A DNA stretch of 5,317 bases, from the IMG/VR virus record IMGVR_UViG_2541047680_000003, one strand, 5' to 3'. The notes under the pieces were generated by a model that saw only the letters and a list, made by a program, of their open reading frames with translations, was not told the DNA's origin and made no database searches. Both the position numbers and the translations under genes were made by a program. Positions 1,293 through 5,317 of the stretch are shown piece after piece. Position 1 is the first letter of the stretch, and each line of letters begins with the position of its first letter. The stretch is from a virus. Lineage: Duplodnaviria > Heunggongvirae > Uroviricota > Caudoviricetes.

Positions 1293-1517
1293 ATGAACTG
1301 TAACAAAAATGAAGAAACTCGCCTGGTTTGGACGGTAGTAATCGGAGATAAAAAGGGCGGTGAAGAGCCTCATTTTGATTATTCTGTGGCTTTGCAGGCT
1401 CTCATCCTTGAAGCGCAGAGATACCAACAAGAGATGCAGAAGAACCCTCAACTGGAACCTCGACCAATTGGCCTATTCTGCGAGCGAGTATCAGCGGCTG
1501 AACTCCCTGATATCTGA
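1293..1517 (+). CDS. Hypothetical protein (74 aa from ATG 1293; ORF track gives GTG 1278)
   Basis: Strong RBS AAGGAG (1282..1287) 5 nt before ATG 1293. Last gene of the small-ORF cluster, followed by palindromes and a promoter. Confidence 0.55.
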   Translation: MNCNKNEETRLVWTVVIGDKKGGEEPHFDYSVALQALILEAQRYQQEMQKNPQLEPRPIGLFCERVSAAELPDI

Positions 1518-1530
1518 TGCCCTCCAACAG

Positions 1531-1549
1531 CTGATCAGGTTCTGATCAG
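1531..1549. promoter_or_regulatory. Tandem palindromic 8-mers CTGATCAG-GTT-CTGATCAG (each containing a GATC site); possible protein-binding site
   Basis: Seen directly: CTGATCAG at 1531..1538 and 1542..1549, 11 bp centre to centre; a third CTGAT at 1514..1518. Function is inferred. Confidence 0.3.
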
Positions 1550-1578
1550 TTAGTAAAGCAAACTATAAAAACACCTGT

Positions 1579-1598
1579 CCCCGTGACTGGTCACGGGG
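1579..1598. promoter_or_regulatory. Perfect 9-bp/2-nt/9-bp palindrome CCCCGTGAC-TG-GTCACGGGG: operator-like site or terminator stem for the upstream operon
   Basis: Seen directly. It lies about 20 bp upstream of the -35 of the immunity-leader promoter and about 60 bp after the stop of the 74-aa ORF. It is followed by TAAAATGTCTTTT, which is not a clean U-tract. Confidence 0.35.
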
Positions 1599-1618
1599 TA
1601 AAATGTCTTTTCAAATTA

Positions 1619-1648
1619 TTGACGTGTGCGTCGTTTTGACGGTAAAGT
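1619..1648 (+). promoter_or_regulatory. Sigma70-like promoter of the immunity leader (TTGACG -35 at 1619..1624, TAAAGT -10 at 1643..1648, 18-nt spacer)
   Basis: Hexamer match by eye. A second TTGACG at 1636..1641 has no good -10. No transcription start site data. Confidence 0.4.
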
Positions 1649-1680
1649 TACTACGCTGCGGTAAATCCCGCAGCCGGGAC

Positions 1681-1704
1681 TCTCAACCCCGAAATCCGAA
1701 CGAC
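1681..1704 (+). promoter_or_regulatory. Upstream antisense target boxes (seqA / a1-b1 analogue): TCTCAAC 1681..1687 and CCGAACGAC 1696..1704
   Basis: 1681..1687 is complementary to the single-stranded GUUGAGA of the ncRNA (1814..1820). 1696..1704 is complementary, with one G-U pair, to the 9-nt loop 1799..1807. The order and spacing fit antiparallel pairing. Confidence 0.5.
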
Positions 1705-1708
1705 GCAC

Positions 1709-1731
1709 AACACGCGCCAGCGTGTTTTTTT
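1709..1731 (+). terminator. Rho-independent terminator / attenuator in the immunity leader
   Basis: Stem AACACGC (1709..1715) and GCGTGTT (1720..1726), loop GCCA, with a run of seven T at 1725..1731. It sits between the upstream target boxes and the structured RNA. Confidence 0.65.
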
Positions 1732-1762
1732 GTGTGTATAAGCCTGCGCATATCCGAATTAT

Positions 1763-1838
1763 GGTAGCTCAGGCGGGGCAGCCGAAAGGCTGGCCGGTGT
1801 CGTTTGGGCCGGTGTTGAGAACCCCGCTTGGGCTACCA
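1763..1838 (+). ncRNA. Structured antisense immunity RNA of the P1 C4 / P4 CI / N15 CA type (tRNA-like; probably excised from the leader transcript)
   Basis: A 16-bp closing helix (1763..1778 with 1822..1837, two G-U pairs) encloses a GAAA-tetraloop hairpin (1779..1792) and a second hairpin (1793..1813, 9-nt loop), plus an 8-nt single strand GUUGAGAA (1814..1821). ACCA follows the helix at 1835..1838. The loop and single strand are complementary to boxes both upstream and downstream. No long ORF in 1518..1897. Confidence 0.6.
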
Positions 1839-1849
1839 CCCTATAGAGA

Positions 1850-1889
1850 TTCTCAACTCTGGTGGTAGCACTGTTCTTCCAAACAAGAG
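1850..1889 (+). promoter_or_regulatory. Downstream antisense target boxes (seqC / a2-b2 analogue) abutting the RBS of the first operon gene
   Basis: TTCTCAAC (1850..1857) is a perfect 8-nt complement of ncRNA 1814..1821. CCAAAC (1879..1884) is complementary to loop 1802..1807 and sits immediately before the AAGAG Shine-Dalgarno at 1885..1889. Confidence 0.5.
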
Positions 1890-1897
1890 TGCATACC

Positions 1898-2062
1898 ATG
1901 TTCAAATTCAAATTTGCGGCAGTCGTTCGCACAGACAAAAAGTCACACATCCATCATCTTTCCACTATCGCGTCATCTGAACGGGAAGCTCGTCGCCAGT
2001 TCGCCAGCCGGTTTGTCCTGGTATTGTCTGCCCGTATTCCGGTGCGCGAGGTGGCTGCATGA
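1898..2062 (+). CDS. Small protein (54 aa), first gene of the antirepressor operon; Icd-like by position only
   Basis: ATG 1898 with AAGAG RBS 8 nt upstream. The ORF track shows a longer 1862..2062 form, but that start would lie inside the RNA target region. The stop overlaps the next start as ATGA (2059..2062). Confidence 0.5.
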   Translation: MFKFKFAAVVRTDKKSHIHHLSTIASSEREARRQFASRFVLVLSARIPVREVAA

Positions 2063-2292
2063 ATCAGGTAAAAATGAACACTGTTGGCCTGCTGGAGTCG
2101 TTGGATGAACGTCTGGCTCAGGTCTATGCGCTCGTGTCATCAGCCCATCGGACAGTATCCAGCTGTGAGGCGTCGATTTATCTATCAGAAGCCGGGAAGC
2201 TCCTTCAAATTGCGTGTGAGCTAACACACGAAGCACAGGGGTATTCAGCATCTCTCTCGTCGCAATTGCAGCACAATAAGGAGGCCAAATGA
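2059..2292 (+). CDS. Hypothetical protein (77 aa), middle gene of the antirepressor operon (AntA-like by position)
   Basis: ATG 2059 overlaps the upstream stop (ATGA), with GAGG at about 2048..2051. Its own stop overlaps the next start (ATGA at 2289..2292). Confidence 0.6.
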   Translation: MNQVKMNTVGLLESLDERLAQVYALVSSAHRTVSSCEASIYLSEAGKLLQIACELTHEAQGYSASLSSQLQHNKEAK

Positions 2293-3071
2293 GCGCGTTA
2301 GCTGTATTTTCGTTTCAGGAAGAGCATCAGGTTCGTGTAGTGATGATTGATAGCGATCCGTGGTTTGTAGCGGCTGATGTTTGTAATGCCATCGGGATTA
2401 TCAATCATCGTGATGCTGTTGGTAAGTTGGATGAAGACGAAAAGGGGGTCGGTTCAACAGACACCCTTGGAGGTAAACAGGGAGTGACAATTATCAACGA
2501 ATCCGGCCTCTATACCCTAATCCTCCGCTGCCGTGATGCGGTGAAGCAAGGCACAACAGCTTGGCGGTTTCGCAAATGGGTAACGAACGAAGTCTTGCCC
2601 TCTATTCGCAAAAATGGAGAGTACGTTTACATCGAGCCTGAGCCAATGCGAGCAGCGGAGCCGTTGAACTGGAGGCAGAAAGAGTATCTGCGAGGGCTGA
2701 TTAACGATATAGCACAAAGTTTTCAATACCGAAATGCCTGGATTAGTGGTGTATGGTTGGCTTTGCGTCGGGCGTGTCGTAATCCATCCCCGAACCCCAT
2801 AACGGTTGATGATTTGCCAGCAATTACGGCAGAACTGCGCCGGATTTTGACGGCTGCTGAGTCGGCATTGGGGAACATGCGCACGTATGAACGAGAGTTG
2901 TTGCGTGATGTTGTTCGTGGGGGTAGGCGGAGTATGTCGTGTGGTGATTTACCCATCACCGATATTAACTCTGATCTGGAAAAGGCGTTACCCGCGCATT
3001 TTGAACTGGCAGTTCAAAAACTTGAGCAGTTATCCGCGCAGCTAAAGCCAGCAGAAATCACCAATAAATAG
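2289..3071 (+). CDS. ant: Phage antirepressor with an N-terminal Bro-N-type domain (260 aa)
   Basis: The N-terminal 110 residues (FSFQEEHQVRVVMIDSDPWFVAADVCNAIG ... ESGLYTLILRCRDAVKQGTTAWRFRKWVTNEVLPSIRKNGEY) fit the Bro-N / antirepressor N-terminal domain pattern as I remember it. Strong RBS AAGGAGG (2278..2284). Translationally coupled to the upstream gene. Confidence 0.8.
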   Translation: MSALAVFSFQEEHQVRVVMIDSDPWFVAADVCNAIGIINHRDAVGKLDEDEKGVGSTDTLGGKQGVTIINESGLYTLILRCRDAVKQGTTAWRFRKWVTNEVLPSIRKNGEYVYIEPEPMRAAEPLNWRQKEYLRGLINDIAQSFQYRNAWISGVWLALRRACRNPSPNPITVDDLPAITAELRRILTAAESALGNMRTYERELLRDVVRGGRRSMSCGDLPITDINSDLEKALPAHFELAVQKLEQLSAQLKPAEITNK

Positions 3072-3207
3072 GGTTGACCAGCCCGAATTTATGCCCTTCT
3101 TAGAGAAGGGAAGCCTCGCAGTCGGGGCGGTGATGTCTGTGGTTGCAGCCGCGTTTCCTCCGTTACTTCTGCCCTTTGCAGGGGGCAGGCGAGGTAGGTC
3201 ACACAAC

Positions 3208-3231
3208 AAGGCACCGTTAATTCGGTGCCTT
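3208..3231. terminator. Hairpin between the convergent ant operon and telN; candidate bidirectional terminator
   Basis: Stem AAGGCACCG (3208..3216) and CGGTGCCTT (3223..3231), loop TTAATT. Flanking T-rich or G/T-rich sequence on both strands is only moderate. It lies 12 nt from the telN stop. Confidence 0.5.
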
Positions 3232-3242
3232 TACTGTATGCT

Positions 3243-5126
3243 TTAACCGAAATATGTCAGCCATGCTAACTGCATTGCTGACATGGGGCTGTTTGCACTG
3301 CCGGACCACGCATAATTCTGGCCATTATAATGAAACTCGACAACGTATGAGCCATCACCAATATTTCTCACTGGCTTAAATACCGGCTTAGATACAGGCG
3401 AAGAAGGTGCAGGCGGTTGCTGTTCTTCTACGCTCTCTTCCTCTATCTCAATTTCGTCGTCATCCAGATCGTCATCCTCTGATAATTCATCCGCCAGTTC
3501 AGGTATTGCTTCCAGTTCTTCTTCGTCAGGCATAACGATTTCTGGAGTATCTATTTTCAGTTGCCATTGTCCGTTTTCGCCAACAAATTGCCCCAGAGCA
3601 TCAGCAGCAAATTCCAGGTATCGACTAATCATTGTTGGGCTAAATTTGAACGCTCTTAGAGTGCTGTTCGTGATTTTTATAGAGGGGTCCTGCTCTACCA
3701 GCTGCTTAACTGTGTTATGCAGACGAACCCCGGCATCTCCTCTGGCGAATCCAGGCATTTCGTCATCAAGCTGCTGCAATGCTTCCAGCCTGGTATTTTC
3801 GTTTCCAGTATTTGGCCTCCATGTCTTTGAGAAGTTGGCCAGCTTGAATTGCTTATAGTGTAATTGAGTGTTTTCATCGTCATGGCCTAAGATTTCCATA
3901 AAGAAAACATCCTCATCTACGTTTTTCCAACGAGGATCTACGCGGAAAAACATTTCATACGCAATACGGGCATAAATAGCACGACTATCTTTATAAACAC
4001 GGCGGTTATCTTTGAAAAATGATTTAACCCACGGGTTAAAAGCCTTTGCTAATATGGCATTAATACGTCCGTTTTCAGAGCGTGTGTCGTTATCTCCATA
4101 ACCTTTAACGACATCATCAAAATCAGATGCTGCTGGGCATGAGCGAAGTACATTTATTAAATAAACAAATGTTTTTGCTTCGCATAATGTATATATTTTT
4201 CTGGTTATATCATCAGAAGTTCTTTTTTTAGCTTGGCCTAAAAAATCAACGGTATACTTACCAGAAACAGTAAATGTACCTTGATACATAATCTCAATCA
4301 TTCGTCTTCCTGACAATGCAGCAAGTGCAAATGCCAAAGGAGCCATACCTGAACGAGTGTTTAGATTATTTAATGTAGCAGGGCTATTTATAATATCGTA
4401 AATAGCTTGCATATATTTAGGGTAATCAATGACCACCACGTTACGTTTCTTATTGTGCAGAACGTCCGCCCATCGTTGCTGGATAGATGCGCGTTCGGCA
4501 GGGCTTAGTTGAAGATGATAGAGAATCTCATGGTTAACTTTTAGCTGATTCAACTCCTCAAGCAAGGCAGATCCTTGCTGTAGTAATTTATATAAATAAT
4601 CGCGCTTATCTTTCCAGTTATCGCTAGTTAAATCAGAAATGGCGAATTGCCACTCTTTATATTTATTTGATAATTTTAATAACTTATTATGGCTTTTGTT
4701 ATCACCAATTCTGATATTAGATAAATCTTCTGATAAAGGGAGAATTAATTTTAATTTTGCCTGTAAAGCTGACATTCTCTGGCGAATATCGGCAGCAGGT
4801 AGAGAAAGCCATGACAATAGCTCCTCATTATATAAAGGATACTTTTCAGATAGGCGATGTATATTTTTTTCAAAGCTATGATGAAGTTTATCATCAAACC
4901 GTTTTCTGGCCCTGCTCATATATGCATTGAATGTGTTGGCTGTAATTCTTTTTTCTAATCCTTTCCCCCTAAACTTTCGCTTGTCATTAAATAATGCATT
5001 TTTAAATTTTAATGCAACAGCCTTTATTTTTTTTGTTTTTTCCCCTTGAGGACGGTCAGAGTTATCTATTGACTCAACATCGCTAACAAGTGAGTTTATT
5101 AATTCACCGATTTTTACTTTGCTCAT
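3243..5126 (-). CDS. telN: Protelomerase (telomere resolvase), TelN/TelK family, 627 aa
   Basis: Length and overall sequence match my recollection of N15 TelN (631 aa). Tyr424 in QLHYKQF coincides with the published TelN catalytic Tyr424 (TelK Tyr425). RR at 274..275 and K300 are in tyrosine-recombinase-like positions. An acidic D/E linker (residues about 533..570) precedes a small C-terminal domain. Strong RBS (GGAGAGG on the minus strand) before ATG. The gene is adjacent to a half telomere palindrome. Confidence 0.93.
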   Translation of the reverse strand: MSKVKIGELINSLVSDVESIDNSDRPQGEKTKKIKAVALKFKNALFNDKRKFRGKGLEKRITANTFNAYMSRARKRFDDKLHHSFEKNIHRLSEKYPLYNEELLSWLSLPAADIRQRMSALQAKLKLILPLSEDLSNIRIGDNKSHNKLLKLSNKYKEWQFAISDLTSDNWKDKRDYLYKLLQQGSALLEELNQLKVNHEILYHLQLSPAERASIQQRWADVLHNKKRNVVVIDYPKYMQAIYDIINSPATLNNLNTRSGMAPLAFALAALSGRRMIEIMYQGTFTVSGKYTVDFLGQAKKRTSDDITRKIYTLCEAKTFVYLINVLRSCPAASDFDDVVKGYGDNDTRSENGRINAILAKAFNPWVKSFFKDNRRVYKDSRAIYARIAYEMFFRVDPRWKNVDEDVFFMEILGHDDENTQLHYKQFKLANFSKTWRPNTGNENTRLEALQQLDDEMPGFARGDAGVRLHNTVKQLVEQDPSIKITNSTLRAFKFSPTMISRYLEFAADALGQFVGENGQWQLKIDTPEIVMPDEEELEAIPELADELSEDDDLDDDEIEIEEESVEEQQPPAPSSPVSKPVFKPVRNIGDGSYVVEFHYNGQNYAWSGSANSPMSAMQLAWLTYFG

Positions 5127-5170
5127 CTTTCCTCTCCTGATTATCCGCTCGGATTATCGTAACACAATTT
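5127..5170 (-). promoter_or_regulatory. telN translation-initiation and promoter/operator region (RBS, GATTATC direct repeats, small dyad ATCCG-CT-CGGAT)
   Basis: On the minus strand the motif order is TTGTGT, 16 nt, GATAAT, then CAGGAGAGGAAAG and ATG. The GATAAT element occurs twice (plus-strand GATTATC at 5139..5145 and 5152..5158). The exact -35/-10 assignment is uncertain. Confidence 0.35.
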
Positions 5171-5249
5171 GAGAATAAGATAACTAATAACGCGTTAACT
5201 TAGCCACAAACTAACAGAACACAATAACGGATAGTAAACAAAAACACAA
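5161..5249. repeat. Three direct copies of AACACAAT (5161..5168, 5218..5225, 5242..5249) upstream of telN; candidate accessory protelomerase-binding (tos-like) repeats
   Basis: Seen directly. The motif resembles the CACA(C/T)AAT segment inside the telomere half-site (5295..5303) and the CACACAAT of the remembered N15 telRL. Confidence 0.5.
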
Positions 5250-5290
5250 TATCGGAACGTTAAAAATTGTTCCTTGACTTTGTTCTGAAG

Positions 5291-5317
5291 ATCAGCACAT
5301 AATTCCCCATTATACGC
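5291..5317. other. Half of the telomere resolution palindrome (telO/telRL half-site); the window ends at the dyad centre, implying a hairpin telomere
   Basis: ATCAGCACATAATTCCCCATTATACGC differs at only about three positions from the left half of N15 telRL as I recall it (TATCAGCACACAATTGCCCATTATACGC|GCG...). The last bases CCATTATACGC equal the left half of the 22-bp telO palindrome. Confidence 0.8.

Follow-up and report, generated by a model that had tools for sequence, protein, structure and literature searches.

In phages P1, P4, and N15, a C4-type antisense RNA is cut from the transcript of the very operon in which it is encoded. The closest described relative of the locus studied here is immA of N15, reportedly presented by Ravin, Svarchevsky and Deho in 1999 as an "antirepressor operon" in which CA RNA is followed by icd, antA, and antB (genes 32, 31, and 30). 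By analogy with P1 and P4, N15-type control would operate through premature termination, a block to translation, or both. Genes 30 to 32 of N15 have also been designated the "Antirepressor operon" elsewhere, and expression of the 76-aa AntA protein alone, from araBAD, raised the copy number of an N15-derived plasmid about tenfold (PMC2847241). In addition, the small CA RNA negatively regulates the anti-repressor gene of N15 (PMC10732415). In the GenBank record of phage phiKO2, the name "antirepressor" is given to the homologue of AntA and "auxilary anti-repressor" to that of AntB. Two reviews give the function of AntB as "not elucidated," and the same two term AntA a "repressor" rather than an anti-repressor, which points to some looseness in the secondary literature.

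Parts of the same design recur in other elements. In the immI region of P1 and P7, a C4 RNA lies among its target sites in the order a1-b1-c4-a2-b2. According to the P1 annotation, icd is "apparently required for expression of ant" and the a2 and b2 sites serve "repression of icd ant translation." The P1 Icd protein causes filamentation. A single effector gene in this region yields the in-frame products Ant1 and Ant2. In the satellite phage P4, CI RNA is followed by kil, epsilon, and orf151, and epsilon is an anti-repressor of the C repressor of the helper phage, P2. Finally, in Gifsy-1 of Salmonella, orf45 and anrP overlap by AUGA downstream of the IsrK leader, and mutagenesis of start and stop codons proved that the two are translationally coupled (PMC4825925).

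Here, we describe an operon in a window of 5,317 nucleotides of viral DNA, the whole stretch that was analyzed (IMG/VR record IMGVR_UViG_2541047680_000003). The source of the window is an N15-like telomere phage-plasmid, and the operon is an ordinary copy of the N15-type icd-antA-antB anti-immunity operon, a system that has long been known. We consider it very probable that an N15-like linear plasmid prophage has its secondary-immunity (immA, "anti-immunity") operon here, gated by RNA and with AntA as the effector.

Genomic setting and gene content

The genes of the window are arranged as in N15 and phiKO2, with the C-terminus of RepA (2-592, match to phrog_4913) followed by small open reading frames (ORFs), a terminator, icd, antA, antB, and a convergent telN (3243-5126, minus strand) that encodes four protelomerase Pfam domains. 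The operon thus occupies the place between repA and telN that is typical of N15-type immA, and its leader contains the C4-type RNA gene (1757-1843) preceded by a rho-independent terminator (1709-1732) that also characterizes immA. One terminus of the window is the centre of the telRL telomere palindrome. The closest DNA match is Ravinvirus phage YDC107_1 (94.7%), and 111 plasmids in PLSDB match the window. The likeness to N15 extends from genus-level phage type through the leader, terminator, and C4-type RNA to the gene order and both ATGA overlaps, although DNA similarity to N15 that megablast can detect ends inside antA. At the protein level, the three genes are orthologous to N15 gp32, gp31, and gp30, with 94% (over the 54-aa core), 63%, and 73% identity. 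The genes and the hairpin that follows them are as follows.

1898 to 2062, plus strand: icd, 54 aa, Icd family (homologue of the P1/N15 cell-division inhibitor; NF033153, 1.1e-18; 94% to N15 Icd), candidate gate gene for C4 control
2059 to 2292, plus strand: antA, 77 aa, predicted two-helix hairpin, N15 AntA orthologue (63% to N15 gp31), probable anti-repressor
2289 to 3071, plus strand: antB, 260 aa, N-terminal Bro-N (PF02498), N15 AntB orthologue (73% to N15 gp30), annotated as auxiliary anti-repressor
3208 to 3231, no strand assigned: hairpin AAGGCACCG-TTAATT-CGGTGCCTT in the gap where antB and telN converge, read from the letters of the sequence

Direct reading of the sequence confirmed the earlier claim of three co-directional genes joined by two ATGA junctions. 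The icd gene begins with ATG at 1898 and ends after 54 codons with TGA at 2060-2062, inside the ATGA (2059-2062) that opens the 77 codons of antA. In the same way, the antA stop overlaps the start of antB at 2289-2292, from which 260 codons run to a TAG stop. Each gene is preceded by a Shine-Dalgarno (SD)-like motif: AAGAG at 1885-1889 for icd, GAGGTGG at 2048-2054 for antA, and AAGGAGG at 2278-2284 for antB.

Comparison with N15-like relatives gave dN/dS values of 0.02-0.06 for icd, about 0.16 for antA where calculable, and 0.07-0.24 for antB. Synonymous divergence was at or near saturation while dN stayed low for all three, which identifies them as real genes and not chance ORFs. A 92-aa ORF on the minus strand (1973-2251) was regarded as spurious because the plus-strand frames are under purifying selection. 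A lone ATGA overlap of four nucleotides is unremarkable in a compact phage operon. Yet both junctions read ATGA in all eight relatives that have the three genes (YDC107_1, N15, PhiR46_1, KpLi5, phiKO2, NAR688, MStein-2023a, and 020009), and since they have been kept despite saturated divergence, the overlaps look maintained rather than accidental. At the first junction, phage 48ST307 has GTGA instead.

The original prediction had assigned the two small proteins by position only; both can now be placed by homology, AntA through its 63% identity to N15 AntA and Icd through a profile search. The 54-aa protein matches NCBIfam model NF033153 at 1.1e-18 and P1 Icd matches the same model at 3.4e-14, so that, by profile, the first small ORF is a true member of the Icd family. 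A BLASTP comparison of the window Icd with P1 Icd returned no similarity, and the kinship is seen only at the level of the profile. The conserved start is ATG 1898: the Icd model begins at residue 2, and relatives differ by indels of 1-2 nt upstream of this codon. On these grounds, we rejected both a GTG start at 1862 (66 aa) and the old N15-style annotation of a 96-aa first gene ("cA protein").

Downstream, the hairpin at 3208-3231 is probably a bidirectional terminator that closes the operon. The phiKO2 record annotates a "putative bidirectional" terminator at the matching position. Because a T-run-based terminator scan did not detect the hairpin, we infer this role from its position and letters.

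Control region

The region ahead of icd contains the elements expected of C4-type control.

1619 to 1648, plus strand: sigma-70 promoter-like site, TTGACG, 18-nt spacer, TAAAGT (consensus scan; -35 invariant in 7 phages)
1655 to 1730, plus strand: IsrK-like leader ending in an intrinsic terminator (Rfam RF01394, 56.9 bits versus a gathering score of 50, positions 1-77 of 77)
1681 to 1687, plus strand: target site a1, TCTCAAC, loop of leader hairpin 2, complementary to C4 a' and co-varying with it
1695 to 1705, plus strand: target site b1, TCCGAACGACG, complementary to C4 loop b' (11 bp including 3 G-U) and co-varying with it
1709 to 1732, plus strand: Rho-independent terminator at the leader/C4 boundary, a GC-rich stem of 7 bp and then a T run (terminator scan)
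1757 to 1843, plus strand: C4/CA-type antisense RNA (Rfam RF01695, 74.4 bits versus a gathering score of 45, E 9.4e-14, model 1-87 of 87)
1798 to 1808, plus strand: b' recognition loop of the C4 RNA, TGTCGTTTGGG (named after the P1 annotation)
1814 to 1821, plus strand: a' single-stranded recognition segment of the C4 RNA, GTTGAGAA (pairing analysis)
1850 to 1857, plus strand: target site a2, TTCTCAAC, located just past the 3' end of the C4 RNA in the loop of a hairpin, with 8 Watson-Crick pairs to a' (compensatory change)
1878 to 1889, plus strand: target site b2, TCCAAAC (1878-1884), adjoining the AAGAG of icd (1885-1889), in the position of P1 b2

The site at 1619-1648 corresponds in position to the promoter from which the leader, the C4 RNA, and the operon are transcribed, and would serve the same purpose here. 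A second leader-type match, to RF03163 (c4-a1b1) at 1642-1695, scored 28 bits, below the gathering score of that family. The terminator at 1709-1732 corresponds to a site annotated in both N15 and phiKO2, and its T run is invariant among the seven phages aligned. The C4 RNA itself folds (minimum free energy, -51.4 kcal/mol) into two internal hairpins closed by a long stem, with ACCACCC at the 3' end.

The recognition segments co-vary with their targets. Among the seven phages, a' is of three types (TTGAGAA, TTGCGAA, and TTCCTAC), all of which find their match at a1 as well as at a2; compensatory changes at a2 include TTCGCAA in PhiR46_1 and GTAGGAA in KpLi5, phiKO2, and PY54. The b' loops are different in nearly all of the phages, and each matches b1 and b2 of its own phage. 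On average, the longest pairing was 7.1-8.5 bp with a phage's own targets versus 4.9-6.0 bp with the targets of other phages. These are counts of contiguous pairs in the loops only, a measure chosen because stems contribute to RNAduplex energies of whole segments and make them noisy; in the MAFFT alignment, the a1 and b' regions are out of register in some phages. In the window, the b'/b2 pairing is short (7 bp including one G-U), and b2 abuts the SD motif without covering it. With respect to N15, a' is identical, but b' is TTTCTTCTTGTA in N15 versus TGTCGTTTGGG in the window, and b1 and b2 differ as well, so the specificity of the C4 RNA is a different combination from that of N15.

The original prediction drew an analogy with the c4-icd region of P1, which turns out to be apt: a C4 RNA (74 bits) lies at 1757-1843, the first genes share family NF033153, and P1 icd and ant1 overlap by ATGA. 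The P1/P7 order of sites is also retained. P1 b2 overlaps the ribosome-binding site of icd, and b2 of the window is at the equivalent relative position, next to the SD. Nevertheless, no IsrK-type terminator is annotated in the P1 leader, and the Ant1 and Ant2 products, with their KilAC/ANT domain, are unlike either AntA or AntB; P1 Ant1 matches PF03374 at 1.2e-30, while AntB has only Bro-N. Judged from sequence, then, the window would operate like immI, yet by its effector it is not an immI member.

Similar limits apply to the other two systems. In P4, an Icd-like ORF with 50% identity to the window Icd lies directly downstream of a C4-clan RNA. Next comes a small gene that overlaps it, epsilon, whose 95-aa product is annotated as a "helper derepression protein." However, epsilon and orf151 have no detectable kinship to AntA or AntB, the P4 overlaps are of 8 nt and not ATGA, and the repressor that is targeted belongs to another phage. 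Gifsy-1 shares an IsrK-homologous leader (1655-1730 in the window) and a small ORF with an AUGA overlap to an anti-repressor-like gene. It differs in that its short leader RNA is described as a trans-activator of translation and that neither a C4 RNA nor an icd gene is reported there.

Candidate effector proteins

The Bro-N domain that had been predicted for the 260-aa protein was borne out by a profile search. PF02498 matched over its full length at residues 14-104 (nt 2328-2600), with an E value of 1.2e-19 and 71.2 bits versus a cut-off of 25.6. The AF2 model of AntB has a mean pLDDT of 63; its N-terminal domain reaches about 70-85, and its helical C-terminal half is of low confidence and poorly defined. 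In that half, no PF03374 (KilAC/ANT) match was found at E<=0.01, which sets AntB apart from Bro-N/KilAC "Ant" anti-repressors of the Phi11 Gp07 type, whose C-terminus carries this domain. A Foldseek search of the model against the PDB gave no match with E<=0.001, a PDB sequence search gave nothing meaningful, and comparisons with P4 orf151 and with P1 Ant1, a KilAC/ANT-domain protein, detected no similarity.

AntA matches phrog_6301 and phrog_10889 ("anti-repressor"), and its AF2 model (pLDDT 87.5) consists of two helices, at residues 3-31 and 35-76. It has no Pfam match, no similarity to P4 epsilon or P1 Ant1, and nothing meaningful in a PDB sequence search. Its relatives are few: a word-indexed protein search returned close AntA relatives only, an exhaustive phmmer search found 8 cluster representatives among 1.84 billion proteins, and a scan of genome contigs with AntA alone gave no confirmed locus.

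Which of these proteins is the anti-repressor? A case can be made for the 260-aa Bro-N protein, with the two small ORFs serving mainly as leader or gate cistrons that deliver ribosomes to it. Proteins with a Bro-N domain commonly carry an anti-repressor annotation, AntB has its top PHROG matches to "anti-repressor Ant" (phrog_130, 1.8e-50), and Phi11 Gp07, which combines Bro-N with KilA-C, acts in the lysis-lysogeny switch. Moreover, the effectors of P1 and Gifsy-1 are large proteins encoded after a small ORF, and the "auxilary" label chosen by the phiKO2 annotators suggests that AntB may contribute. Yet in the orthologous N15 operon, AntA gives anti-repression by itself. Phage 48ST307 lacks antB and PhiR46_1 retains 53 residues of it, while both keep icd and antA with their overlap. 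Furthermore, AntA is under purifying selection and has a confidently predicted fold, which argues against its being a mere spacer cistron, and AntB resembles P1 Ant neither in domain nor in sequence. We therefore regard a Bro-N effector as improbable: the anti-repressor is most likely the 77-aa AntA, and the original prediction, which gave that role to the Bro-N protein, probably misassigned it.

Even less credible is the view that the operon serves mainly host manipulation or toxicity (a halt to cell division imposed by Icd, or a role that is kil-like or abortive), with downstream proteins unrelated to repressor antagonism. It would fit the Icd-family membership, the filamentation caused by P1 Icd, and the kil position of the homologous P4 gene. 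However, the downstream genes are orthologous to those of the N15 anti-repressor operon, in which the activity of AntA has been demonstrated, and the placement of the operon under a secondary-immunity RNA is conserved. We accordingly assign this alternative a very small probability and retain AntA as the probable effector.

Possible translational coupling

Coupling of translation along the operon is plausible, given the ATGA overlaps in eight of eight relatives and the precedents in P1 and Gifsy-1, though it is least so for antB. Structure prediction buries the initiation region of antA, whose probability of being unpaired is 0.18 versus a background of 0.40. The relatives average 0.25, and together with the window they fall around or below the 10th percentile of background. 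The antB initiation region, in turn, is predicted to be open (0.60 versus a background of 0.40), and with a near-consensus SD (AAGGAGG) in such a region antB could initiate without translation of antA.

An argument can also be made that the overlaps reflect compact packing, that each gene initiates from its own SD, and that C4 control is purely transcriptional, through termination or Rho polarity. Among overlaps in prokaryotic operons, those of four nucleotides are the most common, and for P1, Rho-dependent polarity is the accepted link between translation of icd and expression of ant. Four-nucleotide overlaps were also frequent across the 49 icd loci that we surveyed, both internal starts have strong SD motifs (with AAGGAGG at optimal spacing), and the open antB region fits independent initiation. 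Nonetheless, packing would not readily account for the retention of ATGA in every relative with all three genes in the face of saturated synonymous divergence, nor for the predicted sequestration of the antA start. In addition, the coupling shown by mutagenesis at the homologous Gifsy-1 locus works through an identical AUGA. Packing alone is thus possible but the less likely account, and coupling is carried forward in the model below.

Proposed regulation and implications

Building on the gene set, gene order, overlaps, orthology, RNA families, and loop-target co-variation observed here, we infer for this element how its RNA is processed, how termination or a block to translation silences the operon, how the genes are coupled, and what the proteins do. 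A single promoter (about 1619-1648) would drive the leader with a1, b1, and the terminator, then the C4 RNA, a2 and b2, and icd-antA-antB, and the C4/CA-type RNA would be excised from this transcript. In the lysogen, the a' and b' loops of the mature C4-like RNA would pair with a1/b1 and a2/b2. The transcript would then stop early, or icd would go untranslated and the downstream message would be lost through polarity; either way, no AntA would be made. Should the C4 RNA become scarce or be out-titrated, icd would be translated, and ribosomes terminating at ATGA could restart on antA, or make it accessible, and perhaps do likewise for antB. The helical hairpin of AntA would inactivate the primary CB-type repressor, which is encoded outside the window, antagonism of CB by AntA being known for N15 only. 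AntB (Bro-N) might assist, and Icd may transiently block division of the host cell.

The main value of these findings lies in correcting how N15-like phage-plasmids, frequent in E. coli and Klebsiella, are annotated. Automated pipelines place "antirepressor" on the Bro-N protein and leave AntA, the true anti-repressor homologue, as a "hypothetical protein." The comparative data add that C4 loops co-vary with both sets of targets and that leader, C4 RNA, icd, a small ORF, and a third ORF make up a conserved cassette whose cargo is interchangeable. These last two points leave the known workings of the operon, and of an already known system, unchanged.

A more far-reaching interpretation, which we hold to be rather unlikely, is that a' and b' form a two-key code whose parts are exchanged independently, that AntA represents a structurally unexplored class of two-helix anti-repressors, and that the C-terminal domain of AntB has a separate activity. 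If there were such a code, telomere phages that share a host or superinfect it could, in part, silence one another's anti-immunity operons or escape them. If AntB had its own activity, its C-terminal domain might target, for example, a different repressor or a host factor. Read in terms of two keys, the phage in this window pairs an N15-type a' with a KpLi5-like b'.

Identity of the operon

The system under study is the immA anti-immunity operon of phage N15, which is already known and can be found in annotated records of phages and plasmids; its description reportedly dates from 1999. The three open reading frames of the original prediction, along with both of their ATGA junctions, match the sequence exactly.

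Genes, ribosome binding sites, and junctions of the operon
1885 to 1889, Shine-Dalgarno-like AAGAG before icd
1898 (ATG) to 2062 (TGA), + strand, icd, 54 aa
2048 to 2054, Shine-Dalgarno-like GAGGTGG before antA
2059 to 2062, ATGA stop/start overlap of icd and antA
2059 (ATG) to 2292 (TGA), + strand, antA, 77 aa
2278 to 2284, Shine-Dalgarno-like AAGGAGG before antB
2289 to 2292, ATGA stop/start overlap of antA and antB
2289 (ATG) to 3071 (TAG), + strand, antB, 260 aa

Judged by sequence, the genes are orthologues of N15 genes 32, 31, and 30 (icd, antA, and antB). All three frames show purifying selection when compared with N15-like relatives, with dN/dS of 0.02 to 0.06 (icd), about 0.16 (antA, where it could be calculated), and 0.07 to 0.24 (antB), despite synonymous divergence that has reached or nearly reached saturation.

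The two small genes, which had been assigned only by position, can now be better identified. The first, of 54 aa, shares 94% identity with N15 Icd (85% across a longer, partly noncoding stretch) and is recognized by the NCBIfam model NF033153, "host cell division inhibitor Icd-like" (1.1e-18). That model also recognizes P1 Icd (3.4e-14), yet BLASTP between the two proteins finds no match, so their relation is at the profile level only. The second, of 77 aa, shares 63% identity with N15 AntA and matches phrog_6301 and phrog_10889 ("anti-repressor"); searches of Pfam and NCBIfam placed it in no family. An exhaustive phmmer search of 1.84 billion cluster representatives returned just eight matches to AntA, which AlphaFold models confidently as a two-helix hairpin (helices 3 to 31 and 35 to 76; pLDDT 87.5). 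Finally, the 260-aa protein shares 73% identity with N15 AntB and does carry the predicted Bro-N domain (residues 14 to 104; PF02498, 1.2e-19). Its C-terminal half is helical and modeled poorly, and neither the sequence nor the fold of this half has a match in the PDB.

Older records place a 96- to 100-aa "secondary immunity repressor cA" protein across the C4 RNA and icd; the window interval concerned is 1862 to 2062, and the N15 gp32 or "cA" coding sequence lies at 4251 to 4541 of locus L002 and 413 to 715 of locus L003. The PHROG label "transcriptional repressor" (phrog_1743, phrog_6928) still passes the cA annotation to Icd-like proteins.

AntA as the probable anti-repressor

The original prediction took the 260-aa Bro-N protein to be the antirepressor. 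Most likely this names the wrong effector, and the "Bro-N antirepressor" label was probably misapplied, given the N15 and phiKO2 literature and records and the existence of relatives that lack or truncate antB. In N15, expression of AntA by itself from araBAD brought about a roughly tenfold rise in replicon copy number, and the same source refers to "the antirepressor AntA" and to genes 30 to 32 as "the antirepressor operon" (PMC2847241). The GenBank record of phiKO2 speaks of an "antirepressor ... AntA" and an "auxilary anti-repressor ... AntB." In addition, PY54-type antA alone prevents lysogenization (PMC10612081), and according to two reviews the function of AntB has not been elucidated (PMC4488713, PMC10612081). 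Natural loss of antB agrees with AntA, not AntB, being the anti-repressor. Specifically, Klebsiella phage 48ST307 (L013, 2662 to 2943) has icd-antA with a GTGA overlap and without antB, with about 50 nt separating the end of its antA from the stop of telN, and in Escherichia phage PhiR46_1 (L005, 2892 to 3056) AntB is reduced to its first 53 residues.

Two comparisons with other phages bear on the same question. P1 Ant1 is a KilAC/ANT-domain protein to which the window AntB is unrelated. In P4, the gene overlapping the Icd-like ORF is also small, encoding the 95-aa epsilon, annotated as a "helper derepression protein"; epsilon is an anti-repressor of P2's C repressor. When compared, AntA and epsilon were not homologous.

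A C4 RNA control unit upstream of icd

The control unit sits upstream of 1898 to 3071, beyond the region originally described, and belongs to the same system.

Elements of the control unit
1619 to 1648, promoter-like site TTGACG-18-TAAAGT
1655 to 1730, IsrK-type leader, full length (Rfam 56.9 bits; gathering score 50)
1681 to 1687, a1, TCTCAAC, loop of the leader hairpin
1695 to 1705, b1, TCCGAACGACG, in the leader
1709 to 1732, intrinsic terminator closing the leader
1757 to 1843, C4 antisense RNA, full length (Rfam 74.4 bits; gathering score 45)
1798 to 1808, b', TGTCGTTTGGG, C4 RNA hairpin loop
1814 to 1821, a', GTTGAGAA, single-stranded C4 RNA segment
1850 to 1857, a2, TTCTCAAC, hairpin loop directly 3' of the C4 RNA
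1878 to 1884, b2, TCCAAAC, adjoining the icd Shine-Dalgarno

Site names follow P1 nomenclature, by comparison with the annotated P1 record, and the layout a1-b1-C4-a2-b2-icd is common to the window and P1 immI. Pairing is predicted between a' and both a1 and a2, and between b' and both b1 and b2. Across seven phages (the window, YDC107_1, PhiR46_1, N15, KpLi5, phiKO2, and PY54), each of three a' types (TTGAGAA, TTGCGAA, and TTCCTAC) is met by compensating changes at a1 and a2, and the b' loop varies in almost every phage, yet fits its own b1 and b2. The mean longest pairing is 7.1 to 8.5 bp with a phage's own targets versus 4.9 to 6.0 bp with those of other phages. Because the loops co-vary with each phage's own targets, these comparisons provide strong evidence for action of the C4 RNA at both sets of targets. 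The window itself combines an N15-type a' with a KpLi5-like b'. The predicted three-gene operon stands, and the shared NF033153 model, the C4 RNA (74.4 bits), and the immI-like layout uphold its analogy with P1 icd and C4.

The segment GGTGGTAGC (1861 to 1869) is complementary to GCTACCACC (1830 to 1838), the 3' arm of the C4 closing stem. In the local minimum free energy fold, 1861 to 1871 pairs instead with 1889 to 1899, masking the icd Shine-Dalgarno and AUG. Alternative folds of this kind in the unprocessed transcript could tie the processing of C4 to the translation of icd, in a way that recalls the structure A/B switch of Gifsy-1 isrK.

Translational coupling

It had also been proposed that antB depends on translation of both upstream genes. 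Coupling of antA to icd is plausible because of the conserved ATGA, precedent in P1 and Gifsy-1, and a predicted buried antA initiation region. Both overlaps are ATGA in all eight relatives with all three genes; in P1, the icd/ant1 overlap is also ATGA, and icd is described in the P1 record as "apparently required for expression of ant." In Gifsy-1 isrK-orf45-anrP, whose leader is homologous to window positions 1655 to 1730, start- and stop-codon mutagenesis revealed that an AUGA overlap couples anrP translation to orf45 (PMC4825925). Local folding gave the antA initiation region a mean P(unpaired) of 0.18 in the window; relatives gave 0.25, and the background was 0.40 (10th percentile, 0.23). 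The antB start, in contrast, is predicted to be open (0.60) with a near-consensus Shine-Dalgarno, and apart from the overlap itself nothing supports an obligatory link between translation of antA and that of antB. The accepted connection in P1 is Rho-dependent termination once icd translation is blocked. The downstream dependence may owe as much to transcriptional polarity as to ribosome hand-over.

Icd-like loci across GTDB genomes

Our survey of one genome per GTDB species detected 49 Icd-like loci. Rfam scans of 20 of these loci placed C4 upstream of icd in 19, of which 18 also have an IsrK-like leader; the remaining locus, L022, had no match. A 4-nt overlap is usual for the next two genes after icd. 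The dominant cargo consists of families of about 75 and 106 aa, function unknown; P4-type epsilon and orf151 occur at eight loci, and N15-type AntA at only two, one of them also with AntB. Cargo differs and the RNA, leader, and icd recur; thus, these three form the conserved part, and the effectors are exchangeable.

Chromosomal elements of Enterobacterales (L016 to L062) carry an IsrK-like leader, C4, a 64-aa Icd-like gene, and genes for phrog_10110 (about 75 aa) and phrog_5991 (about 106 aa) proteins, chained mostly by ATGA overlaps. These elements are probably P4-like, and their phrog_10110 and phrog_5991 cargo could represent further anti-repressor or derepression proteins.

Genomic setting and telomere end

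The window belongs to a linear plasmid prophage of the N15-like type (Ravinvirus). Its closest phage match is Escherichia phage YDC107_1 (94.7% over 1500 to 3300), and it matches 111 PLSDB plasmids, the majority from Klebsiella and Escherichia. The RepA C-terminus is followed by three small ORFs, the immA locus, and a convergent protelomerase, an order identical in N15 and phiKO2.

Genes flanking the immA locus
2 to 592, RepA replicase C-terminus
604 to 876, 879 to 1274, and 1293 to 1517, small ORFs between repA and the immA locus (PHROGs 18790, 15458, and 21657; function unknown)
3243 to 5126, − strand, protelomerase TelN, 627 aa, with four protelomerase Pfam domains (N-terminal, muzzle, catalytic, and stirrup)

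A hydrophobic stretch, FVALIFVPLLLIGTFV, in the 131-aa small ORF product suggests a membrane protein. The repA-telN interval of Klebsiella telomere phages is the site of telocin toxin-immunity cassettes (PMC12042878), and PhiR46_1 annotates a "Spackle exclusion protein" in it.

The 3' end of the window (5290 to 5317, ending in GATCAGCACATAATTCCCCATTATACGC) stops exactly at the center of the telRL palindrome; in the N15 counterpart, that center falls between TATCAGCACACAATAGTCCATTATACGC and GCGTATAATGG. The final bases are one half of this palindrome; therefore, the right end is the covalently closed hairpin telomere of the prophage. Upstream of telN (5127 to 5290) are direct repeats containing AACACAAT at 5161, 5218, and 5243 and an imperfect 17-nt inverted repeat (5215 to 5231 and 5271 to 5287), which may be regulatory or TelN-binding sites. 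In the deposited "phage chromosome" of YDC107_1 (L001, CP025712.1), the icd region is present in two copies and a full telN stands beside fragmented "protelomerase domain protein" coding sequences. These features suggest that the assembly read through the hairpin telomere, producing a head-to-head duplication artifact.
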